Below are positions 19,214 to 53,491 of a DNA stretch of 64,000 nt, one piece after another. The position numbers and the translations under genes were made by a program. Within the stretch, counting starts at the first letter, position 1. Each line of letters starts with the position of its first letter. Under the pieces are notes generated by a model. That model ran no database searches. It was not told the origin of the DNA and saw only the letters and a list, made by a program, of their open reading frames with translations. Origin of the DNA: a virus (lineage: Duplodnaviria; Heunggongvirae; Uroviricota; Caudoviricetes); the IMG/VR virus record IMGVR_UViG_3300012943_000001, positions 103,743 through 167,742 of that record. One strand, written 5' to 3'.

Positions 19214-19951
19214 ATGCCTAAACTAATGGGTAAGAATGATTCCGTGGTACTTAGCACGGTATCGAATTTCGGGTTTTCAGGTACACGTCCTGAAGCCCTC
19301 GGTGCAAGCGAGTACACAATTGTGTCCATCGCTGTAGACATTTCGGGCTCTGTAGCAAGTTACGAAGCAAGTCTCGTAGAAGCCTACAAGAACATTATCG
19401 GCTCTTGCCGCAAGAATCCTCGTGCCGAAAATCTTCTGGTGCGTGGAGTGACCTTCAACGAAAATCTGAGCGAGTTGCACGGCTTTGTAGGTCTCGACAC
19501 TATCAAAGAAGACCAACTCAGTCTTCACGCTCACGGCGGCACAGCCCTCTTCGACTCTGCCTTGGAAGGTGTTGAAGCTCTTGGCAAGTACGGCAAGACG
19601 CTCTTCGATATGGACTATTTGGTCAATGGAGTTCTCTTCATTGTGACCGATGGCGACGACACAAGCTCCCGCCTCGCGTCCCCAGACAAGATTAAGGCCG
19701 CTTTGGAGAAGGTTCGCAAGACGGAAGTCCTCGAATCTATCAAAGTGATTCTTATCGGTGTGGGCGACCAGAACTCGGTTCAGCAATACCTCGACACTCT
19801 CCATAAGAACGCAGGTTTCGACCAGTTCGCGTGGATTGGTGGTGCAGATGCCAAAGCCCTCGCCAAGATGGCTGCATTCGTCAGCAACAGCATTAGCTCC
19901 AGTTCGCAGGCGTTGGGTACAGGTGGCCCATCCCAGAATCTTACAGTCTAA
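19214..19951 (+). CDS. vWA domain protein
   Basis: AVDISGSVAS MIDAS motif. Confidence 0.6.
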   Translation: MPKLMGKNDSVVLSTVSNFGFSGTRPEALGASEYTIVSIAVDISGSVASYEASLVEAYKNIIGSCRKNPRAENLLVRGVTFNENLSELHGFVGLDTIKEDQLSLHAHGGTALFDSALEGVEALGKYGKTLFDMDYLVNGVLFIVTDGDDTSSRLASPDKIKAALEKVRKTEVLESIKVILIGVGDQNSVQQYLDTLHKNAGFDQFAWIGGADAKALAKMAAFVSNSISSSSQALGTGGPSQNLTV

Positions 19952-20298
19952 TGTCTGAGGTATCCAAAGAGCTGGCTCAAAAGATAGCCGACGAAATCAG
20001 GGAGAAGCTTATCGAAAAGTACATCACTGTACTTAACGAGGCTTACGATGCGGACCCTGCGGCTATCCACGCCTTGCTCCTCAACAGGATTCCCTGTAAC
20101 GAAAAGCTCGCAAATCATCCTACGATTCAGGTCACTGAAGAAACCGTTCCAAAGCAAACGTACTATTCGGTTGGCGTACTAGGTCTACTAAATGGACTTA
20201 TTGCGTCAGCTACAGGTACGTGTGTGGCGGCGAAGTTCTCCGAGCCTGATAAGGAAGGGCGAGCGACGCTCCTAGGGTTTCAAAAATACAACGGATAA
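19951..20298 (+). CDS. hypothetical protein
   Basis: ATGTCTGA overlap with the upstream gene; followed by an intrinsic terminator. Confidence 0.5.
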   Translation: MSEVSKELAQKIADEIREKLIEKYITVLNEAYDADPAAIHALLLNRIPCNEKLANHPTIQVTEETVPKQTYYSVGVLGLLNGLIASATGTCVAAKFSEPDKEGRATLLGFQKYNG

Positions 20299-20303
20299 CC
20301 AAC

Positions 20304-20326
20304 GGGGAGGGTAACCTCCCCTTTTT
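20304..20326 (+). terminator. rho-independent terminator
   Basis: GGGGAGGgtaaCCTCCCC + TTTTT. Confidence 0.7.
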
Positions 20327-20331
20327 AATTT

Positions 20332-20634
20332 ATGAGTTCGCTATTTATAACGAAATCAAGGTACGACCATATCACTAACTTGTTCACTTCGCTATCTATG
20401 GAGAAGTATAAAGCGGGCGTACCTATGGGTAAAGAATTCGTCTTTGAACTTAAGAAGGATAAGTTCATGAGCCTACAAGAACACTTTGGAGAAAACGCAA
20501 AATCCTTTTTTGATTCAGCGATACAATCTGATGGATTCTACCTCGTAGATGACATAGGTGTTCTGTCGGGTTGGGCAGGTCTCCGCCATATCAGAAAAGG
20601 TAAAGTGACGAACTACATAACTTATAGGTCATAA
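20332..20634 (+). CDS. hypothetical protein
   Basis: 100-aa ORF. Confidence 0.45.
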   Translation: MSSLFITKSRYDHITNLFTSLSMEKYKAGVPMGKEFVFELKKDKFMSLQEHFGENAKSFFDSAIQSDGFYLVDDIGVLSGWAGLRHIRKGKVTNYITYRS

Positions 20635-20635
20635 T

Positions 20636-21139
20636 ATGGAATGCTATAGAATCGAGAACGCCACCGCTATTGGCGGACAAAGATTGGTGGGTGTAGATAT
20701 GAGCAGTTACCCAATCAAAAAGGGAAACTGTTTTGACGTAAAGGTGGGTGAGGAGTACGTAGGTATAGTTAATTTTGGAGCGGAGAATTTAAGAGAGCTT
20801 GTTAAGAGAGGTCTGACGTGGCCTATCAAAATCAAACGTCTCGCTTCTAACGTAGGTTTGATTGTGGACGAGCGTATCCCAGACCACTGGTATCAAGATA
20901 GATACTGTGAGGTATGCACTCCTGAAGCGTTCCTCAATCACTTCCAACTTATGCGGCGTGAGCGTGCGGTGGCACGTGGAGACCGTGAAATTCTACCGGG
21001 CGGATACGTAAGGTCTAGAATAGGTCCGAATCCCGTTTTTGACTACGTTGGAGAGAAAAAGATTGACTTTAAGAACTGGCATTTCAAGATAGAAACCGAA
21101 GTCGTGCAACAGTTCGGCGACGACGGCAAACCACTATGA
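20636..21139 (+). CDS. hypothetical protein
   Basis: 167-aa ORF. Confidence 0.5.
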   Translation: MECYRIENATAIGGQRLVGVDMSSYPIKKGNCFDVKVGEEYVGIVNFGAENLRELVKRGLTWPIKIKRLASNVGLIVDERIPDHWYQDRYCEVCTPEAFLNHFQLMRRERAVARGDREILPGGYVRSRIGPNPVFDYVGEKKIDFKNWHFKIETEVVQQFGDDGKPL

Positions 21140-21327
21140 CGATAGGCAAATACAAAGTCTACCCATTCGAGAAGGTCGAAACGATTGACGGCGTTTGGGG
21201 AGACTGGAAATGCGAGATAGAAGACACTGCGGGCAACCTCAGCATCGGCTATATCGAAGGCGACGGTGGCCTGTTCGAAGAATCTACACTCAAAGACGAA
21301 AACGGAAATCTTATTCCTCATGATTAA
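21136..21327 (+). CDS. hypothetical small protein
   Basis: 63 aa, ATGA overlap with the upstream gene. Confidence 0.4.
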   Translation: MTIGKYKVYPFEKVETIDGVWGDWKCEIEDTAGNLSIGYIEGDGGLFEESTLKDENGNLIPHD

Positions 21328-22174
21328 CACAGACTCATACTATGAAATTGGGGCCGGGCATGTCTTCAATCAAGACTATGCTGATAGCGGTTTCTTTACT
21401 ACTCCCGAGAATGGGAAGAAGTATTACTATGCCGTGGTATCTGATGGATGCTCTGGGTCGAAGGATAGTGACATCGGGGCTCGCTGGATGGCGAAGAATT
21501 TCCCTATCGTTGCACGTGCGGCTCTTATGGGTGAGACAAGCGTCTCTCTACGTGAGAACATCGAGCATGTTCTTGTAGAGAAGATGAAGTCTGAAGAGCG
21601 GCTTTGGTCGATTGCTGGCGAAGCGTACGACGCAACGCTCGTGGCGGTCATCTATGACGAGACCCTAGACGTACTTCATTCCTTCGCTTGGGGCGACGGA
21701 CATATCTTACTCGTAGCCAAAGAGGGCGTATCATTTCTTACTTCAATCAAGTATCGCTCTAACGCTCCATACTATCTATCGTATAGAGTTAGTGTAGATA
21801 GAGAGATGCGGTATGAAGAGTTTTTTGGAAACAATTATGCCGACGTTACCTACAATCTTCTTACGGACGAAAATATTGTCCGTGTTGTAGAGAAGGATGA
21901 ATTCAAAAAGAAGTTTGTGTATGACGAAGTTCCGGGGGCGTCAAAGCTTATCAAGCACGCTCTAGTTATGACCGATGGCGTAGAGACGTATCATAGAAAG
22001 TTCGATGTAGATACCACTATGTCTATGCGTAACGTCTTCAGTCAATTTTCACAATACAAAAACACTCACGGCGAGTTCGTCAAACGTAGAATGCAAAAGG
22101 TCAAGTCCTTCGCAGAGAAGGAAGAGTGGCAGCACTTTGACGACATCAGCGTGGCAACAATTAGTCTGGTATGA
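21320..22174 (+). CDS. PP2C/SpoIIE-like Ser/Thr phosphatase
   Basis: YYAVVSDGCSGSKDSD and LVMTDGVETY resemble PP2C metal-binding motifs; start taken at the ATG overlapping the upstream stop (ATGATTAA). Confidence 0.55.
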   Translation: MINTDSYYEIGAGHVFNQDYADSGFFTTPENGKKYYYAVVSDGCSGSKDSDIGARWMAKNFPIVARAALMGETSVSLRENIEHVLVEKMKSEERLWSIAGEAYDATLVAVIYDETLDVLHSFAWGDGHILLVAKEGVSFLTSIKYRSNAPYYLSYRVSVDREMRYEEFFGNNYADVTYNLLTDENIVRVVEKDEFKKKFVYDEVPGASKLIKHALVMTDGVETYHRKFDVDTTMSMRNVFSQFSQYKNTHGEFVKRRMQKVKSFAEKEEWQHFDDISVATISLV

Positions 22175-23049
22175 GCGACCACAAACCAATTCATTTTCAC
22201 GTCTACGACCCATCTACCTCTTTCTTCAAGTCGAGCAAGAACGATGCGGCCAAAAGATTCGTAGTGCTCTGTAACAATTCAGAGAACTGTGAGCTTCATA
22301 AGAAAGGCACGTGCATACTCAGAAGCTTTTGGGGAGGCGGATGTCCGTATGGATATTGTTCTAATGAAGAAGGCTATACAAGAAGAGCCAGAGGGTTTGG
22401 GACATGGATTCGCAAGCAGGGAGAGATGTATAAAGGCGTCCCGTCTATTTCATCGCCTCCGAAGAAGCTTGCGGTGGTGGGAGACTACATCTATATCCCG
22501 TACGCTCATGCAAACATGAACAAGGAAGTTCCTTTCCTTGGTCATGGTGGGTTTATGTCCTCTGGTAGCAACTTCATTAAGAAAGAGGATTGGACCATAC
22601 ATAATATTGCGAAGATAGTCGCGTTCCATCCACAAGCTTTGATGGGAGGCTATATCGACTCATATTGGAAAGAGGAAGTCCCCCTTTTCCTTTCTCACCT
22701 TGAAGAGGTAATGCCTGACATGTATAAAGAGTTGCTGGCGACATATCCGCAATTCATAAAAAGCTTCAATCTCCTCGCTCCCAAAAACTACGTAGGCCGC
22801 AAAGCTAAAGTAAAAACTCTTTCGCCATGTACGTTCCGTACTAAAGGTTCTCAAGACGGGGACTATAAAGTTACGTGGATTTGGGACGGGAAAGTATTGA
22901 AGACGGCTTCGGATTCGGTCTACCAGTCCATATGGGGAAGTGTCAATAAATATGAGAGTTTGGAAATGACGCTCATACCTAATGACGACTCCGTTATCGA
23001 AATCACAGACAACGCTCAGGTAAATGCTGGCACCGTATTCGTTGACTGA
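22171..23049 (+). CDS. Cys-rich hypothetical protein
   Basis: CNNSENCELHKKGTCILRSFWGGGCPYGYC cluster. Confidence 0.5.
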   Translation: MSDHKPIHFHVYDPSTSFFKSSKNDAAKRFVVLCNNSENCELHKKGTCILRSFWGGGCPYGYCSNEEGYTRRARGFGTWIRKQGEMYKGVPSISSPPKKLAVVGDYIYIPYAHANMNKEVPFLGHGGFMSSGSNFIKKEDWTIHNIAKIVAFHPQALMGGYIDSYWKEEVPLFLSHLEEVMPDMYKELLATYPQFIKSFNLLAPKNYVGRKAKVKTLSPCTFRTKGSQDGDYKVTWIWDGKVLKTASDSVYQSIWGSVNKYESLEMTLIPNDDSVIEITDNAQVNAGTVFVD

Positions 23050-25166
23050 TGTCTTTATTCAATAAAATACTTTCCGCATACGGGATACGTAAAGGCGTAG
23101 GGAAATCTTATTTCAATTTCAATCCATATCTACCGCCCCCACCGATACCAATGCCGCCAGTGGCGACGCCAATGCCCACACCGCCTCCTCCTATTACGCC
23201 AATAGGCAAGCCGTACAATCCTTGGGCGAATGTTAACGTAACTTTTAATCCATACACTCTAAATAATAAAAAGAATCTCCCGGCGTTAGGCGTGTCCGGT
23301 GCGTTCCCTACCTGCATGGTTACGGGTCTGTCATCGCCAAGTAGTGGAAGTTTTTGGCACACCTACGGCAGAAGTAATCCCATTTATCCTGCACCAGTTA
23401 GCTCCGAACTAGAAGCCGAAGAGTTCCAAACCCATTTTAGTAGAAACACCTCAGCACGAATTCCAACCAATATGCTAAACAACTTAACAGTTAACGGAAA
23501 GAAGCTTTCCCTTAAGCAGTCTGACTATAAAGCGTCGGGTGGTGAAGGCGTCGTGTATGTAAAGCACGGAGAAGCTTTCAAGATTTATCATAATCCAAGT
23601 AAGATGATTCCTGTAGGTAAGATTCAGGAACTCAAAGAACTTGCACTTGGAAATGTCTTGGGACCAACCGATATTATCTACGAAGGTAATGCTCCAGTTG
23701 GATTCGTCATGAAGTACGTAAGCGATTCAGAGTTCCTGTGCAAGTTGTTCACGAAGGGATTCCGTGACAAGAATCAAATTACGCACGACAATATTAACGG
23801 GCTCGTACTGAATATGCAGAAGACTTTGGAGCATATTCATACTAAGAAAATTTTGGTGGTAGATTACAACGAGATGAATTTCTTGGTGAACAACGCCTAC
23901 GACACCGTATATCATATCGACGTAGACTCATGGCAGACTCCATCATACCCAGCCACGGCAATCATGGAGTCGATTCGTGACCGCTCTATCAAGAATAATA
24001 AGTGGACTGAAGGCAGTGATTGGTTTAGCTTCGCCGTCGTTGCATTTCAATTGTACTTGGGATGTCATCCGTATAAAGGTCGTCATCCAGACTTTGCTCC
24101 AAAGGATTGGCTGAAGATGATGGACCAGAACGTAAGCATCTTCAATAAGCAATGCAGGCTTCCGCCCGCATCACAGACGCTTGACGCTATCCCAAAAGGT
24201 CACCTCAAATGGTTTGAAGGCGTCTTTGAACGTGGAGAAAGAAATGCTCCGCCTCTTCCAGACCAAATGCCAGCCTTGGCGAGACTCAAGCCTACTATTG
24301 TTCAGTCGAACGCGAAGTTTGATATTTCGGGCGTACGCAAGTATAGTTCGAACCTTCAGATGATTCGCTTCATTGACGGAATTTGCTATGCTCTTACTGA
24401 GACGGGAGTTTATGGAGACTCTAAAGAGTTCGCCACATTCGCAAAAGAAACCGGCTACGTTTCTCGTAGGACGGTTAAAGACATCGTGCCCGTACAGGGA
24501 GACTCGCCACTTATTATTGAGTGGAATAAGATTGCGGCAAAGCTTACCTACAAGACTTTTGCTGGCGTAGAGGTCGGAGCGATTGAGTCGAATGGCTTTT
24601 TCGTTTCCAATCGTTGCGTCTATACCGTGCTTCGTGACAGTTTGATTGAGGTCTCGTTTATAAATAAAGGCGTCAAGATAAACGCTCCGCAGCAATCAGT
24701 GGCGAACATCTTCCATAATCATCAAGTCTTTGACGGATTCGTAGCACAGAACATGCTTAACACTTGCCGCTTTGCCATTCCAGTGAAGGCGGGTCTGTGT
24801 GTCAATCTCCATATGAAGGAGCTGGACAAGTACCGCATCATTGACGGCAAGTATGAATCGGGCGTTCTTATCGTCATCGTCGAAAAATCGGGTAAGTACG
24901 ATAGGTTCACTTTCATCCTCGACAAAACCTTCAGCAGCTATACATATCGGAAGGAAGAGGGCGTGATTGCTTACGACATCAACTTCGCAGTTAAAGACAA
25001 CGGAGTGTGCGTCGCAACCAATGACGACAAGATTGAAGCTTTTGTTACCTACGACAAGGTAAAGCTTTTGGAGTCGCCACTAGACGACAACGAACCTTTG
25101 GTGGCGTTTAAGAACGACATTTACTTCTACGCGGGGGACGGCTTATTCAAGCTGGCATCTAAATAA
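23049..25166 (+). CDS. eukaryote-like (Hanks-type) protein kinase with a Pro-rich N-terminus and a C-terminal domain
   Basis: G-loop ASGGEGVVYVK, Lys AFKIY, catalytic loop VVDYNEMNFLV, DVDS (DFG-like). Confidence 0.6.
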   Translation: MSLFNKILSAYGIRKGVGKSYFNFNPYLPPPPIPMPPVATPMPTPPPPITPIGKPYNPWANVNVTFNPYTLNNKKNLPALGVSGAFPTCMVTGLSSPSSGSFWHTYGRSNPIYPAPVSSELEAEEFQTHFSRNTSARIPTNMLNNLTVNGKKLSLKQSDYKASGGEGVVYVKHGEAFKIYHNPSKMIPVGKIQELKELALGNVLGPTDIIYEGNAPVGFVMKYVSDSEFLCKLFTKGFRDKNQITHDNINGLVLNMQKTLEHIHTKKILVVDYNEMNFLVNNAYDTVYHIDVDSWQTPSYPATAIMESIRDRSIKNNKWTEGSDWFSFAVVAFQLYLGCHPYKGRHPDFAPKDWLKMMDQNVSIFNKQCRLPPASQTLDAIPKGHLKWFEGVFERGERNAPPLPDQMPALARLKPTIVQSNAKFDISGVRKYSSNLQMIRFIDGICYALTETGVYGDSKEFATFAKETGYVSRRTVKDIVPVQGDSPLIIEWNKIAAKLTYKTFAGVEVGAIESNGFFVSNRCVYTVLRDSLIEVSFINKGVKINAPQQSVANIFHNHQVFDGFVAQNMLNTCRFAIPVKAGLCVNLHMKELDKYRIIDGKYESGVLIVIVEKSGKYDRFTFILDKTFSSYTYRKEEGVIAYDINFAVKDNGVCVATNDDKIEAFVTYDKVKLLESPLDDNEPLVAFKNDIYFYAGDGLFKLASK

Positions 25167-25167: not shown

Positions 25168-25539
25168 GTGTACAGGCTGACAGGTACGATTAGGTATGGT
25201 AACTCATGGGCGTGGGTGGAATGTCCTTATGACGTAGGGGCATACTACCGGCATATCGTCAAGTGGTTGAGCGGGAAACAACTCAGTTCTCCACTTAACG
25301 GGGCTCATATCACTCTGGTTGCTGGAAAATACGAAGCCAACGCGAGCACGCATCCAATGTGGAGGGCTCACGAAGGCAAGCCCATAAACTTTACTTACGG
25401 AGTCCTTTCCGGCATTGAAAGCTATTACTGGCTCACAATCGAGGAAGATTCTGAGTTGAGAAATTTTCGTCGCGAATTAGATTTACCGCCAGAGCTAAAG
25501 TGGCCCTTTCACCTAACGATTGGGAAAGAAAATCCTTGA
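25168..25539 (+). CDS. 2H phosphoesterase superfamily protein (LigT/CPDase/Acb1-like)
   Basis: Two H-x-T-x motifs: GAHITLV and PFHLTIG; 123 aa. Confidence 0.6.
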   Translation: MYRLTGTIRYGNSWAWVECPYDVGAYYRHIVKWLSGKQLSSPLNGAHITLVAGKYEANASTHPMWRAHEGKPINFTYGVLSGIESYYWLTIEEDSELRNFRRELDLPPELKWPFHLTIGKENP

Positions 25540-25568
25540 CTTTTGAAAACGACCGTAAAAGCTCGTCC
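25536..25568 (+). promoter_or_regulatory. conserved CTTGACTTTTGAAAAC-type promoter upstream of pncB
   Basis: ccTTGACTtttgaaaacgaccgtaaaagctcg. Confidence 0.45.
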
Positions 25569-25570
25569 GC

Positions 25571-26794
25571 ATGATTATCACTAGTCTCCTCGACCTCGAC
25601 CTGTATAAGCTGACGGTAGGCCAAGTCATCTTCAAAAACTTCCGCTTCGTCCGGGCGAAGTACCGCATGACGGTTCGCAATGGCAAGCAGATTAACTTCT
25701 GGCATGGAGACATCGCTCGCCAGATGGAAGTTGAGATTAAAGCTCTTGAAAACTTGAGTCTACAACCTGACGAGGCAGACTATCTTCGCAAGTTGGGTTT
25801 GGGATTCGAAGAGTCGTATCTACGTTTTCTTTCGAACAAGCCTATGGAAGGTTGCTTCGTTAGATACGTTCATCAAGAAAGCATAAAGTTTACAGACAAC
25901 GACTACGTTCCTGAAGTACATGGAGAATGGTGCAGAGCTATGCTTTACGAAATCTTCTGTCTTAGTATCGCGAATGAAATTTTCGCTAGGCAGTATTGCA
26001 GGTTCAATAATGTCAAATACGATTGGCTTACAGAGGCGGGAGAGGTTCGCCTTGCAAAGAAGATTGCATATCTTCAAGAACATAAAGCGGGAAACTACTG
26101 TAAACATCCGATGTCGATTTCGGAGTTCGGTACGCGTCGCCGGTTGAGTCATGCTTGGCAAGCTCATGTCGTCAAGGAACTCTATAGCAGCGGAGTAATC
26201 AATGCCACGAGTAACGTTTACTTCGGAAAGCTATTCGACATTCCTGTTCGCGGCACTTTCGGCCACGAGTTCACAATGGGTATGCAAGCCTTAACCCGCG
26301 TGCAAGACAGTCAGAAAGAAGCGTTGTGGCTTTGGCATAGAGAGTGGAATGGAAAGCTTTCACTTGCTTTAGACGATACGCTTGGCGATGCGAAGTTCGT
26401 CCAAGATTTTGATAAGGACTTAGCTATGGCTTATTCGGGCCTTCGTCACGATTCGGGCGAGCCAGAGGCGTGGACGGAAGACCGCATCACTATGTATCAT
26501 AGGCTCGACGTGAATCCAGAACAGAAGACTCTTTTGTACTCAGACGGGCTGGACGTTCATAAAGCGGTAGCACTACGCAACCTTGTGGGCTTACGAGCCA
26601 TTCCGAAGTTCGGTATCGGTACGAATTTTACCAACGATACGTTCTCGCCTGTCCCGCAGGTTGTCATGAAGATTGTTCATTGCAACGGTCAACATGTTGC
26701 AAAGCTTTCGAACAATCCCGCCAAGGCTTGCTGCGATGACCCTGAATATCTCCGCTACATCAAGCACATTTCGGGAGTGAAAGATTCAGCTTGA
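25571..26794 (+). CDS. pncB: nicotinate phosphoribosyltransferase
   Basis: N-term SLLDLDLYKLTVGQV typical of NAPRTase; 407 aa. Confidence 0.8.
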   Translation: MIITSLLDLDLYKLTVGQVIFKNFRFVRAKYRMTVRNGKQINFWHGDIARQMEVEIKALENLSLQPDEADYLRKLGLGFEESYLRFLSNKPMEGCFVRYVHQESIKFTDNDYVPEVHGEWCRAMLYEIFCLSIANEIFARQYCRFNNVKYDWLTEAGEVRLAKKIAYLQEHKAGNYCKHPMSISEFGTRRRLSHAWQAHVVKELYSSGVINATSNVYFGKLFDIPVRGTFGHEFTMGMQALTRVQDSQKEALWLWHREWNGKLSLALDDTLGDAKFVQDFDKDLAMAYSGLRHDSGEPEAWTEDRITMYHRLDVNPEQKTLLYSDGLDVHKAVALRNLVGLRAIPKFGIGTNFTNDTFSPVPQVVMKIVHCNGQHVAKLSNNPAKACCDDPEYLRYIKHISGVKDSA

Positions 26795-26822
26795 CTTTCC
26801 TAGAACGATTTTCATCCTCCTA
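26791..26822 (+). promoter_or_regulatory. conserved CTTGACTTTCC-type promoter upstream of nadE
   Basis: gcTTGACTttcctagaacgattttcatcc. Confidence 0.45.
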
Positions 26823-26826
26823 ACCC

Positions 26827-28545
26827 ATGAAAGTTCTCCTCGCCCAGCTTAATCCCGTCGTAGGTGACCTCGAAGGCAACTTTGCCAAGGTCCGCGAAGT
26901 CATTCTGAAGCACGCGGGCAGTCATGATTTGATTGTCTTTCCCGAGTTGACCCTCACTGGCTACCCGCCAAACGACCTGCTTCTCCGTAAGGGATTCGTG
27001 GACGAACAACTCGTCTACGTAGACAAGGTTCGCAAGCTTTCCTACCGTACGCCCGAATGCACCATCCTCATTGGTGCCGTGACGAACAATGAAGAGGTGG
27101 GTAAGCCTCTTCGCAACTCCGCCCTTGGGTTTAACAACGGACATCGTATCGTCACCTATCACAAGCAACTCCTCCCTACCTATAATATCTTCGACGAGAA
27201 TCGTTATTTTGAACCGGGCAATGGAGATGGTTGCGTCTTCCATATCAATACGAAGAAACACGGCAAGGTTGTCTTGGGTCTTCTTATTTGCGAAGACTGT
27301 TGGAATGATGAAGCTGTGTGCGACGCACCACTCTATCCAACCAATCCTGTTCAGAAGGTATTCGAGAACGAGTTCGACCTTCCTAAAGTACAGGCCGTCA
27401 TCACTCTCAACGCTTCCCCTTCGGACGTAGGCAAGCATTCGTATCGCTACACTATGTATTCGACTTTATCGGAGAAGTGTGGCGTGCCGTTCGTCTATGT
27501 TAATTCGGTAGGTGGGCAAGATTCGCTCGTGTTCGATGGACACAGTTTTGTTGTGGATGGCAAGTCGATTTGGTACGCCAAAGGATTTGTTGAAGACCTA
27601 TGGAGTGCGGAGATTCTGGTGCCACAGCCAAACATGCCCGCCCTTCAAGTCCCGCAGTATCATCGCGAGATGCTTATCATTGAGCATTTGAAGCTCGGCC
27701 TCAAAGACTATGTTACCAAGAACGGTTTTCAGAAGGTTGTTGTAGGTAGCTCGGGCGGCATTGATAGTGCCGTCGTACTCATGATTGCGAAGGAAGCCCT
27801 TGGTGCAGAGAACGTCTTTGCGGTTACTATGCCGTCGAAGTTTTCGAGTGAAGGTAGTTGGAAAGACTCGGAAGTCCTCTGTGATAACCTTGGCGTCAAG
27901 CTATACAACCGTCCAATCATCGACGAAGTTCTGGCTTCGATTGAAGCATTTAAGAAGTCGTTTGGTGTAGAGCCAAGCCGCATGACCATCGAGAATATGC
28001 AGGCCCGCATCCGTGGCCGCATCCTCATGGAGTTCAGCAATCATTTTGGTGCCCTCGTTCTATCGACTGGTAACAAATCGGAAATGAGTGTGGGTTACTG
28101 CACTATCTATGGTGACATGTGCGGTGGACTCAGCCTCATTGCAGACCTCTATAAGATGGAAGTCTATGCGGTCGCCAAGTTCCATAACGAGAATCATAGC
28201 GAGCCAATCATTCCTAAAGACATCGTGGACAAAGCCCCTTCGGCTGAACTCTGGGAAGGTCAGAAAGACACTGACAGCCTGCCTCCATATCCAGTCCTCG
28301 ACGCAGTTCTAAAGCTTTATTTGGAGCGTGACCTCATGTCGTACGAAGAGATTCAAGAGGCGAAGCTCCTTATCGAGAACATGAGCCTGAAGGATATCAA
28401 ACGAATCCTCAAGATGACGGACAACGCAGAGTTCAAACGTCGTCAGGCCGCACCTGTCATCCGTATTCATAAGCGTGCGTTCGGATTCGGTCGTAATCTA
28501 CCAATCACCCAACGCTACAAGGTCAGCTACGAAAACGTACTGTGA
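26827..28545 (+). CDS. nadE: glutamine-dependent NAD+ synthetase (nitrilase + NadE domains)
   Basis: MKVLLAQLNP nitrilase start; SGGIDSAVV PP-loop; 572 aa. Confidence 0.85.
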   Translation: MKVLLAQLNPVVGDLEGNFAKVREVILKHAGSHDLIVFPELTLTGYPPNDLLLRKGFVDEQLVYVDKVRKLSYRTPECTILIGAVTNNEEVGKPLRNSALGFNNGHRIVTYHKQLLPTYNIFDENRYFEPGNGDGCVFHINTKKHGKVVLGLLICEDCWNDEAVCDAPLYPTNPVQKVFENEFDLPKVQAVITLNASPSDVGKHSYRYTMYSTLSEKCGVPFVYVNSVGGQDSLVFDGHSFVVDGKSIWYAKGFVEDLWSAEILVPQPNMPALQVPQYHREMLIIEHLKLGLKDYVTKNGFQKVVVGSSGGIDSAVVLMIAKEALGAENVFAVTMPSKFSSEGSWKDSEVLCDNLGVKLYNRPIIDEVLASIEAFKKSFGVEPSRMTIENMQARIRGRILMEFSNHFGALVLSTGNKSEMSVGYCTIYGDMCGGLSLIADLYKMEVYAVAKFHNENHSEPIIPKDIVDKAPSAELWEGQKDTDSLPPYPVLDAVLKLYLERDLMSYEEIQEAKLLIENMSLKDIKRILKMTDNAEFKRRQAAPVIRIHKRAFGFGRNLPITQRYKVSYENVL

Positions 28546-28910
28546 ATAAACTCAGGGAAGCTAAGAGGCTCGTCAGGTCCGCAAAGACCAAAGCGGATTT
28601 GAAAGCTTTAGGATTTAGACAGACCCGGGTCTTTAATAGTACGGTGGACTTTATCTACATTCACCATGAGCTTCAAGCCGTGGTGAAAGAGTCGTGGATT
28701 GTAGGGGAACGCCCTCCACGTCGCTTACGAATTCCGACTGAGAGATTTTTCTGTCCAGCATTCAACAGGTTGGTAATACTACAACCCTTTGCAGATACAA
28801 GGGAAGGTGGTAGAGCTTTAGACCTACTGAGAGTTTCCTATCTCAGTGCCGACCCAAAGTCTTCGAATGCAGCTTGGTTTGACGGCAAACCCGTTTACAT
28901 CGACTGGTAA
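28542..28910 (+). CDS. hypothetical protein
   Basis: 122 aa, 4-bp overlap with the upstream gene. Confidence 0.5.
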   Translation: MNKLREAKRLVRSAKTKADLKALGFRQTRVFNSTVDFIYIHHELQAVVKESWIVGERPPRRLRIPTERFFCPAFNRLVILQPFADTREGGRALDLLRVSYLSADPKSSNAAWFDGKPVYIDW

Positions 28911-28913
28911 AGC

Positions 28914-28946
28914 TTGACATTCTGAAAAATTCAGCTACTCTCTGCA
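28914..28946 (+). promoter_or_regulatory. sigma70-like promoter (TTGACA) upstream of nadD
   Basis: gcTTGACAttctgaaaaattcagctactctctg. Confidence 0.4.
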
Positions 28947-28948
28947 CC

Positions 28949-29554
28949 ATGAGACGCAAAGCCATTTTGGGTGGAGCCTTTGACCCAATTCATAACGACC
29001 ATATCCGCATGGGCTACGGCATCATGTACATGGGACTGGTTAATGAAGTTCACTACACTCCTTGTTACAAACACAAGTTTGGCAAGGATATGGCAACCGT
29101 AGACCATCGTCTAGCTATGGGGTTCGAAGGTCTTCAGGAAGCAAGAAAGAAGTACGCGATGGACTTCCGACTTTCGAGAGAAGAGTTCCGAATTCAGCAC
29201 GAAGGCAGCACGTACGAATATCTAACTCAACATATTTATCCAAAGTATAAAGAAGCTCAAGACGAATACTACTTCGTCATTGGCTCTGACAACGCGGTCC
29301 AAATCGAAAAGTTTCATTGTTGGCAGGAGTTGATTAAAATTATCAACTTCATCGTTGTACGTAGAGACGGCTTTATGGCGTCGGGCAACGAATGGTTTAT
29401 GCAGAAGCCTCACCGCTTTGTTGACCTTGGGCTTGCAGGTCTTTCCTCAACTTTGATTCGCGATACGATAAAGAGTCAGGGTCATATCGGCATCAAAGAT
29501 ATGGTGCCCGAATCTGTCTACGAGTATATTACCAAGCACAATCTATACAAATGA
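28949..29554 (+). CDS. nadD: nicotinate/nicotinamide mononucleotide adenylyltransferase
   Basis: GGAFDPIHNDH (H/TxGH) motif; SDNAVQI. Confidence 0.75.
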   Translation: MRRKAILGGAFDPIHNDHIRMGYGIMYMGLVNEVHYTPCYKHKFGKDMATVDHRLAMGFEGLQEARKKYAMDFRLSREEFRIQHEGSTYEYLTQHIYPKYKEAQDEYYFVIGSDNAVQIEKFHCWQELIKIINFIVVRRDGFMASGNEWFMQKPHRFVDLGLAGLSSTLIRDTIKSQGHIGIKDMVPESVYEYITKHNLYK

Positions 29555-30081
29555 GCAAGAAAAATTACCCAATGCCTTCTATCACTGGTGACGTTATTGT
29601 ATATGACGTGTTTTACCAGAAGATTCTTCTTATCAAACGTAAGAAAGACCCGTTCGCCAATACGTGGGCTATCGTAGGCGGATTCTTCAATGCAGAGACG
29701 CATGACGAAGGCGTACAGGACGCATCGGTTGAGGCGGCAGCTATTCGTGAGCTGAAGGAAGAGACCAATATCGACCTCGCACAAATCACGCCTTTAGGCG
29801 GATGCACGTTCCGCTTTCTCACGCTCCAAGACGCTCCCGGTCGTGACCCTCGTGGCCGCGTCGTAACTGCGGTCTATACACTCCGCATTACGAGTGGACA
29901 GGTCATGGACAAGATTCGCGTGGAAGCCAAGCCGCTTGACGACGCTGAAGATATGAAGTGGTTTTCCATCTTTGAGCTTGTTGAAGAAGACAAGATTCCT
30001 TTGGCGTTTGACCATAGGGATTCGATTCGCCAACTCTTCTATCAAGAATTCGGAGGCAGACCGTGGCTGACGAAAAAGTAA
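29551..30081 (+). CDS. Nudix hydrolase (probable ADP-ribose pyrophosphatase)
   Basis: Nudix box GGFFNAETHDEGVQDASVEAAAIRELKEETNI; 4-bp overlap with nadD. Confidence 0.75.
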   Translation: MSKKNYPMPSITGDVIVYDVFYQKILLIKRKKDPFANTWAIVGGFFNAETHDEGVQDASVEAAAIRELKEETNIDLAQITPLGGCTFRFLTLQDAPGRDPRGRVVTAVYTLRITSGQVMDKIRVEAKPLDDAEDMKWFSIFELVEEDKIPLAFDHRDSIRQLFYQEFGGRPWLTKK

Positions 30082-31342: not shown

Positions 31343-32680
31343 ATGTCCCTCCGCAACTCAGATTCAGAAGGCTTCGGCTCTTCTATCAAAGACAAGTTCA
31401 AGATTGGTGCAGGCATCTTCGCGGTGCTCATCGTACTCAGTCTTTTCTTCGGTGCCATTGGTAAGAACGATGACCAAAACTGGCAAGTCCTCCAATACCC
31501 GAACGGCAACGTCCAAGTCATCAACACTCCCGGTTACTACTTGAAGTGGTTCGGCTCCGTTACGACCTATCCTCGTAACTGGCAGGTCGAATACAACGCT
31601 CATGACGGAGCGGACTGGTCCACCAAAGTGACGTTTAATGATGGTGGCTGGGCTCATATGGATTCTATCATCCGTTTTGCCTCCCCATCTGACACTGACA
31701 AGCAGCGTGCATTCCATCGTTTGTTTGCCGGTAGCGAAAAGAATGTAGAGTCTGCTGTTTGGGCTCACTTGTCTGACGCTATGAAGTCCTCTGGACCAGT
31801 AATGTCCACGTCCGAACACCAATCTGCCCGCCGCTCTGAATTCAACGCACTCGTACAAGAGCAGCTTGATAAAGGTCTCTTCGAAATGAAGAAAGTTGAG
31901 AAGCAGCTTCTTGACCAGACCGACGAAAAGGGTAAGCCAATCACGGTCTACGCCACCGAAGTCCTCGTTGACAAGGAAGGTAAGTCCCTCGTTTCTAAAA
32001 CTTCTCCTCTTACAGATTTCGGCATCAAAATTACGCAGTTCTCTATTACGGATGTCCGCTATGACGAGCAGACCGTCAAGCAGTTCGTAACAAAGAAAGA
32101 AGCGTTCCTCGCCGCAGAAAACTCCAAAGCTCAACGCGAGAAGGAAGTTCAGGAACGTCTCATGGTTACCGAAAAGGGTCTTCGTGAGAAGGCTGAAGCT
32201 GAAGCCGCAGCTAACAAGCAAAAGGCCACAGAAGTTATCAATGCCCAACGTGAGAAAGAAGTCGCCGAACTCAACGCTAACCGTGAGAAGGTCGTCGCTG
32301 AAACCAACGCCGCTCGTGAATACGCCGTCGCCAAGCTCACTAAAGAGCAGGCTGAGGTTAAGGCAAATCAAGAGCTTGAAGTTGCCCGCATCGGTCGTCA
32401 AGCCGCTGAGGAAGACGCCAAGAAGCAGATTGTCCTCGCTCAGGCCAAGAAGGAAAGCATCGCCCTCGGTGGTGCAATTACAGAGCGTGACCGCGTGCTT
32501 GCCGAAATTAGCCGCGACCGCGACGTTCAGGTTGCAGCTCAGTTGTCCAAGATTGCTACACCTTCGACCATTATCAGCGGTGGTGGAGCAAATGGTGGTG
32601 GCGATACACAGTCCACTCTCATGAACCTCGTGCTTATGAAGAGCATGGGAGTTCTCCCAGAGACGCCAGCCAAGAAGTAA
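31343..32680 (+). CDS. SPFH/band-7 (prohibitin/HflK-like) membrane protein
   Basis: N-terminal TM, SPFH core, C-terminal Ala/Glu/Lys coiled-coil repeats (AQREKEV...). Confidence 0.75.
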   Translation: MSLRNSDSEGFGSSIKDKFKIGAGIFAVLIVLSLFFGAIGKNDDQNWQVLQYPNGNVQVINTPGYYLKWFGSVTTYPRNWQVEYNAHDGADWSTKVTFNDGGWAHMDSIIRFASPSDTDKQRAFHRLFAGSEKNVESAVWAHLSDAMKSSGPVMSTSEHQSARRSEFNALVQEQLDKGLFEMKKVEKQLLDQTDEKGKPITVYATEVLVDKEGKSLVSKTSPLTDFGIKITQFSITDVRYDEQTVKQFVTKKEAFLAAENSKAQREKEVQERLMVTEKGLREKAEAEAAANKQKATEVINAQREKEVAELNANREKVVAETNAAREYAVAKLTKEQAEVKANQELEVARIGRQAAEEDAKKQIVLAQAKKESIALGGAITERDRVLAEISRDRDVQVAAQLSKIATPSTIISGGGANGGGDTQSTLMNLVLMKSMGVLPETPAKK

Positions 32681-32956: not shown

Positions 32957-33426
32957 ACTTGTTCAATATTGAAAACGCTTTCGAGCGTAATAAAGCTCGC
33001 GGTTGGCCTACAACCTATTTCGCTATCGACATCCACGATACCATCTTCAAGGGTGCGTACAAACTCGACAACCCCGGCAAGACGTTCTATCCTTGGGCCA
33101 AGGAAGTGCTCCTCAATCTAACCAACAACCCGGGCGTCTCTATCATCCTCTACACCGCCAGCCACCACGGACCTGCCAGAGATGTAGAACGGTGGCTCTA
33201 TGAGCACGGAATACGCATTCTAGACATCAACCACAACCCGGACCATCGTAGCAACGAGCTGTGCGATTTCTCCAAGAAGTTTCACTTCGACGTTCTTTTG
33301 GATGACAAGGGCGGCTTTGAAGGCTGGCATGATTGGTTCCTTATCATGCATGAGTTGAAACGCATCGGTCAATGGGTAGACGAACCTAAAGCTACTGAGT
33401 CAAAGAAGTCACTCACAAAGAATTGA
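32953..33426 (+). CDS. hypothetical protein (possible HAD-like)
   Basis: FAIDIHDTIF weakly resembles HAD motif I. Confidence 0.45.
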   Translation: MNLFNIENAFERNKARGWPTTYFAIDIHDTIFKGAYKLDNPGKTFYPWAKEVLLNLTNNPGVSIILYTASHHGPARDVERWLYEHGIRILDINHNPDHRSNELCDFSKKFHFDVLLDDKGGFEGWHDWFLIMHELKRIGQWVDEPKATESKKSLTKN

Positions 33427-33427
33427 A

Positions 33428-33460
33428 CTTGACTTTCCGAACAGCTTGTCAATACTCAAC
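33428..33460 (+). promoter_or_regulatory. conserved CTTGACTTTCCGAAC-type promoter upstream of lemA
   Basis: acTTGACTttccgaacagcttgtcaatactc. Confidence 0.5.
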
Positions 33461-33476
33461 CAGCAATCTCAAAACT

Positions 33477-34061
33477 ATGAAAGCACTCATTATCGTAGGC
33501 GTAATCGCCCTCCTCGCTGGCCTTTGGGCTATAGCTAGTTACAACGGTCTCGTCAACAAAGACGTAGAGGTTCAAGAGAAGTGGGCTCAGGTAGAAAACG
33601 TCTACCAGCGTCGCTTCGACCTCATTCCTAACTTGGTTGAAACCGTAAAAGGTGCAGCCAACTTCGAAAAGTCCACCTTCGTGGAGGTCACTGAGGCTCG
33701 TGCCAAGGTAGGCCAAATCAGCGTGGACATGAAGAATGCGGCCCCAACCGTCGAACAGTTGAAGCAATTCCAGCAAGCTCAACAAGGCTTAGGTGCGGCA
33801 ATGTCCCGCCTTATCGCAGTTGCGGAAAATTATCCACAACTCAAAGCGAACGAGAACTTCCTCGCCCTTCAGACTCAAATCGAAGGTACAGAGAATCGCA
33901 TTTCAGTTGAGCGTCGTAATTATAACACGGTCGTAGCATCATACAATAGTGCGGTCCGTCGTTTCCCCGGTAACATTTTTGCGGGCATCTTTGGCTTCCA
34001 AGTCAAGGCTCCGTTCGAGTCTGAAAAGGGTGCCGATAAAGCTCCTAAAGTTTCCTTCTAA
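33477..34061 (+). CDS. lemA: LemA family membrane protein
   Basis: TM then YNGLV...EKWAQVENVYQRRFDLIPNLVETVKG (LemA hallmark); start taken at the internal ATG after the promoter. Confidence 0.8.
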   Translation: MKALIIVGVIALLAGLWAIASYNGLVNKDVEVQEKWAQVENVYQRRFDLIPNLVETVKGAANFEKSTFVEVTEARAKVGQISVDMKNAAPTVEQLKQFQQAQQGLGAAMSRLIAVAENYPQLKANENFLALQTQIEGTENRISVERRNYNTVVASYNSAVRRFPGNIFAGIFGFQVKAPFESEKGADKAPKVSF

Positions 34062-34771
34062 TGAAGAAGTTCCTTCTAGTCCTCTCTCTGTTTTGTGCGA
34101 CGTTCGCGTTTGCAGAGACAGACCTCGCGGCCCCAACTCGCCTCTTCACTGATAAAGCCAATGTAGTGTCTTCGGACGTTGCATTGGATGTTGAAGTGAA
34201 GCTCAATCAGCTCAACGAGGCAACCACGACTGAGTTCGCGGTCTATATTGTTCCGACGCTCGACACAGAGTCCAGCTTGGAAGACTATACACAACGTACG
34301 GCTCAACGCTGGGGCACGGGCAAAGCCGACAAGAACAATGGTCTCGTACTTTTCCTGTTCGCCAAAGACAGCGAAGGTTATAAACGCATTCGTTTCGAGA
34401 CTGGATATGGACTAGAAGGTGCGTTCCCGGACGCCAAGGCAAAGCTTATCATCGAGCGTGCTATCGTTCCCCTTCTGAAGGAAGATAAGTGGAATGAGGC
34501 TGTACAGGCAGGCGTAGATGCTGCCATCGCAGAAATCAAAGGTGAGTACGAGGTTCCAAAGGCTCCAAGCAATGCCAAACTATACCTCAAGCTTGGGGCG
34601 TTCCTTTTCGGTATCTGGCTCGTTTGTATTTGCATTTGGCCTAAATATACTTGGGAGATTACTTGTATGTTCCTCGACGTACTTTTGACCTCTTCAAAGA
34701 GTAGTGGCAGCAAGGGATACTCGGGCGGAGGCGGAAGCTTCGGTGGCGGTGGAGCGTCAGGGAAAGCTTAA
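34061..34771 (+). CDS. TPM-domain (TLP18.3/YgcG-like) phosphatase-fold protein
   Basis: Signal peptide, TPM core, C-terminal TM and Gly-rich tail; TAATGA overlap with lemA. Confidence 0.75.
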   Translation: MKKFLLVLSLFCATFAFAETDLAAPTRLFTDKANVVSSDVALDVEVKLNQLNEATTTEFAVYIVPTLDTESSLEDYTQRTAQRWGTGKADKNNGLVLFLFAKDSEGYKRIRFETGYGLEGAFPDAKAKLIIERAIVPLLKEDKWNEAVQAGVDAAIAEIKGEYEVPKAPSNAKLYLKLGAFLFGIWLVCICIWPKYTWEITCMFLDVLLTSSKSSGSKGYSGGGGSFGGGGASGKA

Positions 34772-35899: not shown

Positions 35900-36781
35900 A
35901 TGAACGTAAAGTGGCTGATAGAGGACTTCGACGCGGACAACAAAATCTGGGAGACGGTCGCGGAGGTAAGACGCCTCGGCCTACCCTGTGAGATTGCTGA
36001 CTACTACAATTTCTATCTCAACGGCAACGTTGTAGAAGATGGGAAGAAGGTCTTGTCGAAGTTTCAGGATGACGATTGCGTCATCTTCCAAGGCTCCATT
36101 CAGCTCGCCCTCTGGATTAAGAGGAACAAGCCGTGGGTGCCGGGAATGTGGTTTGAACCTGAGAAGTTCAAATGCACGTACTTCTACTCGTACTTGGGTG
36201 AATTCCTATTCAATCAAGACTATATCTTTTCGACCATTGGAGAGTACAAGCGTCGTCGCGACATGTTCTACCACCTTGTTGGCAAGGATGATTGCTTGTT
36301 CATGCGTCCTGACAACGGGACGAAATCATTCACTGGTCAAATCTTTAAGAAGGAAACCCACAATACAGATTGGGCTTTCTTCGACACGTACACAAAGGCT
36401 GAAGACATTGTAGTCATTGCTCCACCAAAGCGTATTCACGCTGAGTATAGATTTGTCATAGGAGGCGACGAGATTGTAGGAGCGAGTATGTATCGCTATG
36501 AAGACAAGGCCCGCCTAATGCCGGGAGCCCCAAAGCGTGCTCATAATGTCGTCAAGGAAATCGTCAAGGTCATCAACAAAGACATGAAGATTGGAGCTAT
36601 GTATGTCGTTGACATAGCGGAAGACTACGATGACAAATACAGCCTCATGGAAATCAATTGCTTCAACTGTGCAGGTCTATACGAGACAGACAGGAAGGCG
36701 GTCGTAGCCGCAGCGAATCAACTCGCTTGGAACGAGTATCAAGAGTATATGAAGGTAGAAGAAGAGTTTTCTCAGTCTTAA
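35900..36781 (+). CDS. ATP-grasp fold enzyme (paralog 1)
   Basis: EYRFVIGGDEIVGASMYRY and MEINCFN resemble ATP-grasp B-loop / Mg-binding E-x-N. Confidence 0.55.
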   Translation: MNVKWLIEDFDADNKIWETVAEVRRLGLPCEIADYYNFYLNGNVVEDGKKVLSKFQDDDCVIFQGSIQLALWIKRNKPWVPGMWFEPEKFKCTYFYSYLGEFLFNQDYIFSTIGEYKRRRDMFYHLVGKDDCLFMRPDNGTKSFTGQIFKKETHNTDWAFFDTYTKAEDIVVIAPPKRIHAEYRFVIGGDEIVGASMYRYEDKARLMPGAPKRAHNVVKEIVKVINKDMKIGAMYVVDIAEDYDDKYSLMEINCFNCAGLYETDRKAVVAAANQLAWNEYQEYMKVEEEFSQS

Positions 36782-36784
36782 GAG

Positions 36785-52657: not shown

Positions 52658-52733
52658 GGGGATGTAGCTCAGTTGGTAGAGCACCTGCTTTGCAAGCAGA
52701 TTGTCGCAGGTTCGACCCCTGTCATCTCCACCA
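52658..52733 (+). tRNA. tRNA-Ala(TGC)
   Basis: GGGGATGTAGCTCAG...TTCGACC...CTCCACCA; loop TTTGCAA; G3:U70. Confidence 0.8.
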
Positions 52734-52782
52734 TTTCATTGACGCGGTTGTTACTACACGGGTTAGTCAGGAAGTAACATTT

Positions 52783-52858
52783 GGGGGCAAAGCATTGCTG
52801 GCAATGCGTCTGTCTTGCACACAGAAAACTGCGGGTTCGACTCCCGCTGTCTCCACCA
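52783..52858 (+). tRNA. tRNA-Ala(TGC)-like, atypical D-arm
   Basis: GGGGGCA...loop CTTGCAC...TTCGACT...TGTCTCCACCA; G3:U70 present. Confidence 0.5.
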
Positions 52859-53487: not shown

Positions 53488-53491
53488 ATTT

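Follow-up and report, generated by a model that had tools for sequence, protein, structure and literature searches.

A predicted deamidated NAD+ recycling cluster beside PARP and macro domain genes in an uncultured jumbo phage

We consider it probable, taking the whole of the mechanism proposed below into account, that the stretch of DNA analyzed here (64,000 nt, hereafter the window) belongs to an uncultured jumbo phage that encodes a self-contained NAD+ recycling loop within a larger NAD+/ADP-ribose island. The phage is about 205 kb in size (contig of 205,482 bp), and its PncA, PncB, NadD and NadE genes make up a predicted deamidated route that leads in four steps from nicotinamide to NAD+, a reading that holds up on analysis. 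Profile matches, conserved catalytic residues and conserved synteny argue both for this route and for an accompanying Nudix hydrolase of the ADP-ribose (ADPR) pyrophosphatase type. The gene order recurs in four related phage contigs (L001, L003, L005 and L088), with protein identities of 38-77%, and the clustering is therefore not a matter of chance.

In the proposed mechanism, cleavage of NAD+ by the phage PARP or by host NADases would release nicotinamide and the ADP-ribose unit. The PncA-like nicotinamidase would convert nicotinamide to nicotinate, which PncB would combine with PRPP to form NaMN; NaMN would then be converted to NaAD by NadD, either the phage copy where present or the host's essential enzyme, and a two-domain NadE would complete the return to NAD+ with glutamine. 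In addition, the macro domain would free ADP-ribose from modified targets, and the Nudix enzyme would split free ADP-ribose into AMP and ribose-5-phosphate, able to feed ATP and PRPP. The genes would be read as separate short units, each from a CTTGACT-type promoter approximately 36 nt 5' of the ATG, and the purpose of the loop would be the upkeep of NAD+ during infection, whichever consumer is at work.

Enzymes of the predicted route

The ORFs named in the initial annotation were all located where it had placed them, on the + strand, and catalytic residues are kept in all five enzymes (PncA, PncB, NadD, NadE and Nudix) as judged from alignments with PDB structures. The assignment of four of them to the PncB, NadE, NadD and Nudix families was borne out by profiles, with PncB and NadE above equivalog cut-offs and Nudix matching PF00293, while NadD matched its family below the cut-off. 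The gene for PncB, nicotinate phosphoribosyltransferase, lies at 25571-26794 (+), and its predicted reaction, from nicotinate and PRPP to NaMN, is based on profiles and residues. In the NCBIfam profile search the protein scored 324 bits against the TIGR01514 equivalog (cut-off 269.6), both NAPRTase_N and NAPRTase of Pfam were matched, and it aligned over its full length with PDB 1yir (E 3e-59), with the histidine of the GHE motif (H232) kept; this phosphoribosyltransferase is thus of the NAPRTase class and not of the Nampt class. NadE, a glutamine-dependent NAD+ synthetase predicted on the same grounds to convert NaAD to NAD+, is encoded at 26827-28545 (+). It combines CN_hydrolase and NAD_synthase domains, reached 572 bits with NF010588 (cut-off 479) and matched PDB 5kha (E 1e-102). 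The Glu-Lys-Cys triad (E40, K113 and C155) and the SGGIDS ATP loop (309-314) are both present, as expected for a synthetase of the glutaminase type.

The NadD-type nicotinate-mononucleotide adenylyltransferase (28949-29554, +), predicted to convert NaMN to NaAD, is a divergent protein and its gene is an accessory one in the phage clade. Its best score, 109 bits with NF000840, is below the cut-off of 150, but all profile matches are NadD, and the PDB matches are likewise exclusively NadD (best 1kam, E 5e-18), a class assignment that in sequence terms does not tell a preference for NaMN from one for NMN. The motifs GGAFDPIH15NDH18 and S166-STLIR are present and both motif histidines are kept; the Gly of HxGH is replaced by Asp in the window phage and L005, and by Ser in L088. 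Overlapping nadD by 4 bp, the next gene (29551-30081, +) encodes a stand-alone Nudix hydrolase of the NadM-Nudix/NrtR clade, predicted to be an ADPR pyrophosphatase yielding AMP and ribose-5-phosphate. This protein scored 56 bits with PF00293, its best NCBIfam matches were NrtR and the Nudix half of NadM-Nudix, and its PDB matches were 2fml, 3gz8, 2qjt and 2qjo. The catalytic glutamates of REx2EE are intact (RELKEET, 66-72). With 176 aa, the protein terminates just past the AFDH motif and therefore lacks the wHTH domain of NrtR. A loop is inserted in the Nudix box between GGF and the REx2EE helix, and because of this loop the substrate could differ from ADPR.

The first step of the route was attributed in the initial annotation to a PncA-like gene upstream, and this gene was found at 18380-19180 (+), with a CTTGACT motif at 18339. 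It encodes a divergent PncA/Pnc1-like protein of the isochorismatase fold, a predicted nicotinamidase that would convert nicotinamide to nicotinate. Its HMM scores are weak (17.6 against a cut-off of 27 in Pfam; 35 against 174 bits in NCBIfam), yet its top PDB matches are nicotinamidases (2h0r, E 2.6e-4) and all six catalytic and metal residues align with yeast Pnc1: D9, K157 and C207 with the triad D8/K122/C167, and D52, H54 and H123 with the Zn ligands D51/H53/H94. The phage protein carries an insertion of approximately 55 residues relative to Pnc1, and its orthologues in L001, L003 and L005 are 63-77% identical to it.

Transcription layout and two small proteins

The motif CTTGACT occurs 21 times against 10.4 expected, a count reached in none of 100 shuffles, and for 9 of 16 cases its distance to the ATG is 35-38 nt. 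Each gene of the cluster had been assigned its own CTTGACT promoter, which is true of pncB (25535-25541, +; 36 nt 5' of the ATG and overlapping the stop codon of the preceding 2H gene) and nadE (26790-26796, +; 37 nt), and of nadD with the variant CTTGACA (28913-28919, +; 36 nt); the 2H gene, orf122 and the Nudix gene are without the motif. The genes had also been described as consecutive and joined by 4-bp overlaps. Such overlaps were confirmed at nadE/orf122 and nadD/nudix only, with gaps of 31-38 nt at 2H-pncB, pncB-nadE and orf122-nadD, and a conserved gene for a 122-aa protein, orf122, had been overlooked between nadE and nadD. As promoter motifs start internal genes and gaps separate genes, a single operon, as first proposed, was rejected, and the cluster is better described as a run of short transcription units. 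No convincing intrinsic terminator was found within 25.1-30.1 kb. The promoter layout suggests leaderless mRNAs, and it accounts for the errors in public gene calls for this lineage.

Two small conserved proteins were brought to light by the cluster. The first, a miniature 2H phosphoesterase of 123 aa (25168-25539, +), has two invariant HxT/S motifs and the duplicated beta-alpha-beta lobes of the 2H fold, which place it in this superfamily. Its gene begins 1 nt past the stop codon of a kinase-like gene, and it seems to close the unit upstream of it instead of belonging with the NAD genes. Acb1 is the closest solved structure; orthology with Acb1 is unproven, the structural likeness being generic to the 2H fold. 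The second, orf122 (28542-28910, +), overlaps nadE by 4 bp and encodes a protein with a kinase-like core, in which just the Lys / Asp-x4-Asn / Asp core of the protein-kinase-like fold is retained; K49, D104, N109 and D121 are invariant.

The ADP-ribose island, its relatives and its possible purpose

A PARP of the phage's own, as the initial annotation had supposed, is present at 15463-16866 (+), with CTTGACT at 15436. This 467-aa PARP-like ADP-ribosyltransferase, a predicted NAD+ consumer, is composed of WGR, PARP regulatory and PARP catalytic domains, all above the Pfam cut-offs (PARP 120.7, WGR 52.4 and PARP_reg 38.6 bits), and its H-Y-E triad is intact (H342, Y376 and the E of HNEF), as expected for a PARP. 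Orthologues with 71-75% identity are found at the corresponding place in L003 and L005. The macro domain gene (17846-18337, +; CTTGACT at 17810), which is also conserved in L003 and L005, encodes a stand-alone domain predicted to be an ADP-ribose or ADPR-1''-phosphate hydrolase (phrog_335, E 4e-37; NCBIfam DarG macro, 37 bits, below the cut-off). A SLOG-NADAR gene, the second ADP-ribose-related gene of the window, is found at 152-1024.

The genes of the window, L003 and L005 follow the order PARP, o301, macro, PncA, vWA, PP2C, kinase-like, 2H, PncB, NadE, orf122 family, NadD (in some) and Nudix. The PncA-to-Nudix part is kept in L001, and PncB-NadE-orf122-NadD in L088. The presence of PARP, macro and PncA in one conserved island supports a link between the predicted salvage route and PARP. 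NadD was observed in three of the five genomes (the window phage, L005 and L088) and the clusters of L001 and L003 lack it; the route encoded by the phage is thus incomplete in some members of the clade. A Francisella-type route, with NadE acting on NaMN, is unlikely in these relatives, NadE being of the standard two-domain glutamine-dependent type. Nudix is present in L001, L003 and L005, and L088 ends before its position. IMG/VR, when searched for NadD of the phage clade, yielded no match.

As all five enzymes belong to ordinary bacterial housekeeping families and the window ORFs that were scanned include no recognized virion structural gene, we considered whether the window might be cellular DNA without a role specific to the phage, either a bacterial contig that was binned wrongly or a passenger block acquired recently from a host. 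This is very improbable. NadE scans of genome and metagenome contigs returned almost exclusively cellular NadE from many phyla, just 36-47% identical, whereas phage-clade orthologues are 62-69% identical; the same scans added one phage-clade fragment (L088) and a duplicate of L001, and pointed to no host. Furthermore, the window contains an array of 42 tRNA genes, HNH endonucleases, RNA ligases and many PHROG-only families, every ORF given a function is on the + strand, an IMG/VR viral contig is syntenic with it, and independent samples have yielded contigs of 205-222 kb. No match was obtained when the cluster was compared by megablast with 50,697 phage records, and a close cultured relative is hence lacking.

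Bacteria commonly fight phages by depleting NAD+, and a counter-defence role for the phage-encoded cluster is plausible. The cluster might be kept mainly to rebuild NAD+ after attack by host NADase defences (Thoeris, DSR, SIR2-HerA, SEFIR and others), as a functional analogue of the NARP1-3 pathways via nicotinate; this purpose, put forward in the initial annotation, is possible but far from assured. Its entry point would be nicotinamide, a product of the defence NADases, by way of the conserved PncA; ADPR, their other product, is also predicted to be disposed of; phage NAD+ rebuilding is already established as counter-defence for three other enzyme sets; and the closest solved structure of the adjoining 2H enzyme is Acb1. 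However, the literature searched holds no experimental support for a counter-defence role of any phage PncB/NadE cluster, NadD is dispensable in relatives, and the tight conserved linkage is with a phage PARP, an NAD+ consumer, rather than with known anti-defence genes. The Nudix is predicted to destroy the ADPR that NARP1 reuses, and four enzymatic steps stand against the two-gene NARP1-3. Running the route uses up PRPP, glutamine and no fewer than two ATP, with one more spent if PncB is coupled to ATP hydrolysis; this expense and the four steps may make it slow when NAD+ is depleted acutely.

The cluster may instead mainly sustain phage ADP-ribosylation: as PARP uses up NAD+ it would set free nicotinamide, itself a PARP inhibitor, with PncA removing this inhibitor, the route regenerating NAD+, and macro and Nudix clearing ADP-ribose; this purpose, too, is possible but far from assured. 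The fixed relative order of PARP, macro, PncA and PncB-NadE-Nudix in the window, L003 and L005, the intact PARP triad and the second ADP-ribose-related gene are in its favor, and PARP is also listed as an NAD+ consumer for NAD-jumbo phages (PMC11662467). However, among 16 PARP-positive records of the phage collection, only LR756511 and LR756500 also appeared in the PncB and NadE searches, the PncB-NadE clusters of MT835470 and LR756501 had no PARP match, and no PARP was found in the 21.7 kb examined of the 94-kb L001 contig. Moreover, the two halves of the island are set apart by unrelated genes (vWA, PP2C and kinase-like) that span approximately 6 kb. A more elaborate proposal, which we regard as unlikely, is a closed virus-encoded NAD+/ADP-ribose economy (PARP as writer, macro as eraser, Nudix for ADPR disposal and a full return from nicotinamide to NAD+) in which 2H and orf122 are built-in miniature enzymes, processing ADP-ribose-derived or cyclic-nucleotide molecules (e.g., Appr>p or immune signals) or phosphorylating a pathway intermediate; phages would then have a fourth NAD+-based counter-defence, with a mechanism distinct from the others.

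Comparison with known systems

The reading as a deamidated route stood with respect to enzyme families, residues and synteny, but the claim of a new kind of pathway was overstated, since similar clusters are already on record; the present cluster is a good example but not the first. Complete Preiss-Handler sets have been described in jumbo phages, with a pncB-nadD-nadE cluster in Kuafu_71, by annotation only (PMC11662467, Microbiome 2024). As a phage larger than 200 kb with pncB, nadD and nadE all present, the window phage belongs to the NAD-jumbo phages as defined there, i.e., those that encode at least one NAD+ synthesis route in full. It shares with the Kuafu_71-type phages a jumbo genome, clustered pncB/nadD/nadE genes and NAD+ consumers such as PARP, the evidence being annotation only in both (PMC11662467). 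The window phage differs in its unrelated lineage, with no megablast match to phage records, and in an island that adds PncA, a NadM-type Nudix and conserved synteny with PARP and macro; Nudix and macro are unmentioned in that study, and pncA appears in its discussion only (PMC11662467). Similarly, PncA, PncB, NadE and NadD lie within 5 kb in MT835470 (an unannotated 117-kb GenBank phage from human feces), and in LR756501 (an unannotated 735-kb huge phage) PncB and NadE are approximately 0.8 kb apart, with a PncA-like gene approximately 7 kb off. Their proteins are 21-35% identical to those of the window, with NadE matching in the synthetase domain only (query residues 285-485 and 294-457, respectively), and the window Nudix, 2H, orf122 and PARP had no tblastn match in the 17-kb stretches of these two genomes examined.

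None of the experimentally validated NARP1-3 pathways runs through the deamidated PncB/NadE route, and our literature search returned no named 'NARP4' and no experimental phage PncB/NadE counter-defence. Among the island ORFs scanned, the defining pairs of NARP1-3 (Adps + Namat, Nampt + NMNAT and PnuC + NadR) had no match. NARP2, as in KVP40 with NadV and NatV (Nampt and NMNAT-Nudix), is also a phage salvage from nicotinamide, and the adenylyltransferase and ADPR-pyrophosphatase-type Nudix that are fused in NatV are adjacent overlapping genes in the window. However, NARP2 is amidated and takes two steps via NMN, whereas the window route would be deamidated and take four via nicotinate, NaMN and NaAD; its phosphoribosyltransferase matches the NAPRTase equivalog and its adenylyltransferase is NadD-type, not NadM-type. 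NARP1 (Adps and Namat) and NARP3 (PnuC and NadR) have the same proposed outcome, restored NAD+, but no enzyme in common with the window cluster. NARP1 reuses ADPR rather than destroying it, NARP3 imports nicotinamide riboside, and both are experimentally validated as counter-defence, a role that is putative for the window cluster.

The three proven phage answers to NAD+ depletion are thus amidated or ADPR-reusing shortcuts, and phage deamidated clusters are known by annotation only, which raises the question of whether so long a route counters NADase defences or feeds phage ADP-ribosylation. A chemical counterpart is the bacterial pyridine nucleotide cycle (PncA-PncB-NadD-NadE), with the same four families in the same order; unlike it, the window set is virus-encoded, carries a phage-specific promoter motif, lies beside PARP and macro, and has NadD as an optional member. 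The lineage therefore offers a compact, well-conserved example in which PncA, PncB, an optional NadD, NadE and Nudix are placed beside PARP and a macro domain.

Enzymes of the NAD+ genes

The initial annotation described a Preiss-Handler NAD+ salvage operon at 25168-30081, and all of the ORFs that it named are indeed present on the plus strand at the positions described. PncB and NadE are the best-supported of the predicted enzymes and are clearly identified by profile searches. The pncB gene (25571-26794, +) encodes a nicotinate phosphoribosyltransferase with the Pfam domains NAPRTase_N and NAPRTase, scoring 324 bits on the NCBIfam equivalog TIGR01514 (cut-off 269.6), and nadE (26827-28545, +) encodes a two-domain (CN_hydrolase and NAD_synthase) glutamine-dependent NAD+ synthetase, scoring 572 bits on NF010588 (cut-off 479). 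Alignment to solved structures revealed that H232 of the GHE motif is kept in PncB, and that E40, K113, C155 and the SGGIDS loop are present in NadE.

The remaining assignments were made at the family level. The NadD-type ORF (28949-29554, +) matches NadD models alone, all below their trusted cut-offs (best score 109 versus 150), and the structure-based alignment found GGAFDPIH15NDH18 and SSTLIR. In this phage clade, which has further nadD copies in the related contigs L005 (14520-15128) and L088 (3454-4029), NadD carries Asp or Ser where the HxGH nucleotidyltransferase motif has a conserved Gly. The Nudix protein (29551-30081, +), with the catalytic RELKEET present in the same type of alignment, has NrtR and the Nudix portion of NadM-Nudix enzymes as its best matches. 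For the PncA said to lie nearby (18380-19180, +), HMM scores are poor (17.6 bits on the Pfam model; 35 bits on the PncA model, cut-off 174), but the best PDB matches are nicotinamidases, and alignment with yeast Pnc1 showed that the Asp-Lys-Cys triad and the Asp-His-His metal site are fully kept. Taken together, profile matches and catalytic residues support the initial annotation in its gene content and in its reading of the pathway, whereas its details of the operon were partly in error.

Short transcription units and promoter-like motifs

The genes had been described as consecutive, 4-bp-overlapping members of one operon, each with its own CTTGACT promoter. Overlaps of 4 bp were found at only two junctions, nadE/orf122 and nadD/nudix; at the remaining junctions, 31-38 nt separate the genes. 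The 122-aa orf122 (28542-28910), located between nadE and nadD, had been overlooked and is regarded as a real gene because it is conserved in relatives. The exact CTTGACT precedes pncB and nadE, but nadD is preceded by CTTGACA, and no motif of this type was found ahead of the 2H phosphoesterase-fold gene (123 aa, 25168-25539), orf122 or the Nudix gene. The motif is real: against 10.4 expected copies, the window has 21 (19 of them on the plus strand), a count not attained in any of 100 shuffles. The internal motifs and the junctions thus indicate a series of short units, pncB, nadE-orf122 and nadD-nudix, rather than a single operon. The 2H gene starts 1 base past the end of the 705-aa kinase-like gene upstream, which it overlaps by 4 bp in relatives, and its stop codon is overlapped by the pncB promoter motif. 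The most plausible reading places the 2H gene last in the upstream unit.

The promoter-like motif, CTTGACTTT(C/T), enriched as above with 21 copies, was observed at positions including 3054, 8358, 15436, 17810, 18339, 25535, 26790, 28913, 38207, 43005 and 50442. In 9 of 16 cases, the motif begins 35-38 nt ahead of the downstream ATG, and no Shine-Dalgarno sequence accompanies 14 of the 16. As this spacing puts the ATG at the expected start of a sigma-70-type transcript, leaderless mRNAs are suggested. The lack of ribosome-binding sites is also the likely cause of faulty public gene calls in this phage lineage. The public annotation of the source contig starts pncB internally, giving a 356-aa product, calls an antisense 90-aa ORF where the pncB 5' end lies, and omits both the 2H gene and orf122; in L005, the call in the PncA region (4283-5128) is on the wrong strand.

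A conserved NAD+/ADP-ribose island

The NadE protein of the window is identical to one encoded on the source contig, a 205,482-bp ENA metagenome sequence. Every ORF given a function in the window is on the plus strand, as is an array of 42 tRNA genes with several duplicates (52658-63857), for one of which (56717-56791) ARAGORN reported an undetermined, two-base anticodon. The window also encodes a DnaE-like Pol III alpha (3089-5734), a 495-aa spermidine-synthase-domain protein (6096-7583), a ClpB-like double AAA+ chaperone (8393-10879), two adjacent R2K ATP-grasp proteins (35900-37525), two RNA ligases (Rnl1-like, 43042-44154; PHA02142-type, 47861-48889), HNH endonucleases and many PHROG-only families. 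No near relative was found among deposited phages. Four contigs proved to be related: L001 (an IMG/VR viral contig), L003 (a 222-kb NCBI metagenome-assembled contig), L005 (a 208-kb JGI contig) and L088 (a 4-kb fragment).

Translated comparison revealed a conserved order of PARP, a 301-aa protein, macro, PncA, vWA-like, PP2C, (a 292-aa protein), kinase-like and 2H, followed by PncB, NadE, one or two orf122 paralogues, NadD or nothing, Nudix, HNH and SPFH. The NAD genes thus constitute one half of a conserved NAD+/ADP-ribose island of ~15 kb. NadD is encoded in the window, L005 and L088, three of the five genomes in this group, and is absent from the cluster in L003 and L001; in the latter, NadE is immediately followed by Nudix. 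The PARP1-like protein (15463-16866, +) combines an H-Y-E triad with WGR, regulatory and catalytic domains that all exceed the Pfam cut-offs; its identity is 71-75% in relatives and 24-30% over the full length to PARPs of Xanthomonas, Stenotrophomonas, Klebsiella and Cellulophaga phages. Between the island halves (19214-25166), the vWA-like, PP2C (21266-22174) and kinase-like genes are all kept in relatives, the last encoding the 705-aa protein (23049-25166) with a weak protein-kinase match and a proline-rich N-terminus. A second ADP-ribose-related gene pair (152-1836) lies ~14 kb upstream of PARP, in which a SLOG (YAcAr)-NADAR fusion (152-1024) overlaps a PfkB-family sugar kinase (1021-1836) by 4 bp. 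Downstream of the NAD cluster are an SPFH/Band-7 protein (31343-32680; counterparts in L001, L003 and L005), a LemA protein (33423-34061) and a TPM-domain protein (34061-34771), the latter two with counterparts in L005.

Predicted NAD+ recycling and known phage systems

The simplest reading of the cluster, with activities predicted from sequence, is an NAD+ recycling loop, the chemical steps of which are established for the PncA, PncB, NadD, NadE, macro and Nudix families. NAD+ cleavage by the phage PARP or host NADases would release nicotinamide, which PncA would deamidate to nicotinate; PncB would join nicotinate and PRPP into NaMN, the NadD of the phage or the host would adenylate NaMN to NaAD, and NadE would use glutamine to amidate NaAD to NAD+. 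The macro domain may free ADP-ribose from modified targets, and Nudix may convert it into AMP and ribose-5-phosphate. Such a loop could be a putative NAD+ buffer against host NADase defences, as originally proposed, or could sustain the phage's own PARP, an enzyme that is inhibited by nicotinamide. Within the lineage, supply to PARP is favoured by the conserved association of the cluster with PARP and macro; outside it, however, most PARP-bearing phages are without PncB and NadE, and some other phages carry PncB-NadE clusters that gave no PARP match. We therefore give the two purposes, which are not mutually exclusive, similar weight.

Three phage pathways have been experimentally validated, NARP1 (Adps and Namat), NARP2 (Nampt and NMNAT) and NARP3 (PnuC and NadR), and their enzymes differ from those of the window. 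PncB and NadE are not mentioned in the original NARP preprint, and the Aravind-group surveys of 2021 and 2022 listed NadV/NadM/NadR as the sole route. A complete salvage or Preiss-Handler route was reported in 174 of 668 gut jumbo phages, together with a named pncB-nadD-nadE cluster in the jumbo phage Kuafu_71, and PARP was counted among phage NAD+ consumers (PMC11662467, Microbiome 2024). Among unannotated GenBank records, MT835470 carries PncA, PncB, NadE and NadD inside 5 kb, and the 735-kb phage LR756501 has PncB and NadE spaced by ~0.8 kb with a PncA-like gene ~7 kb off; in Atu_ph07 and LR756511, both PncB and NadE are present and unlinked. Clusters of this kind are therefore already known at the annotation level, so the proposal of a distinct new phage route was overstated, and the window cluster is a further example in an unrelated lineage. 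Compared with the known clusters, it adds a full-length glutamine-dependent NadE, synteny with PARP and macro, and a stand-alone NadM-type Nudix overlapping nadD, the nadD/nudix pair being a split analogue of the NadM-Nudix fusion in KVP40-type phages. It provides a clean, conserved candidate for asking whether the long deamidated route is a fourth phage NAD+ restoration strategy or a service to the phage PARP.
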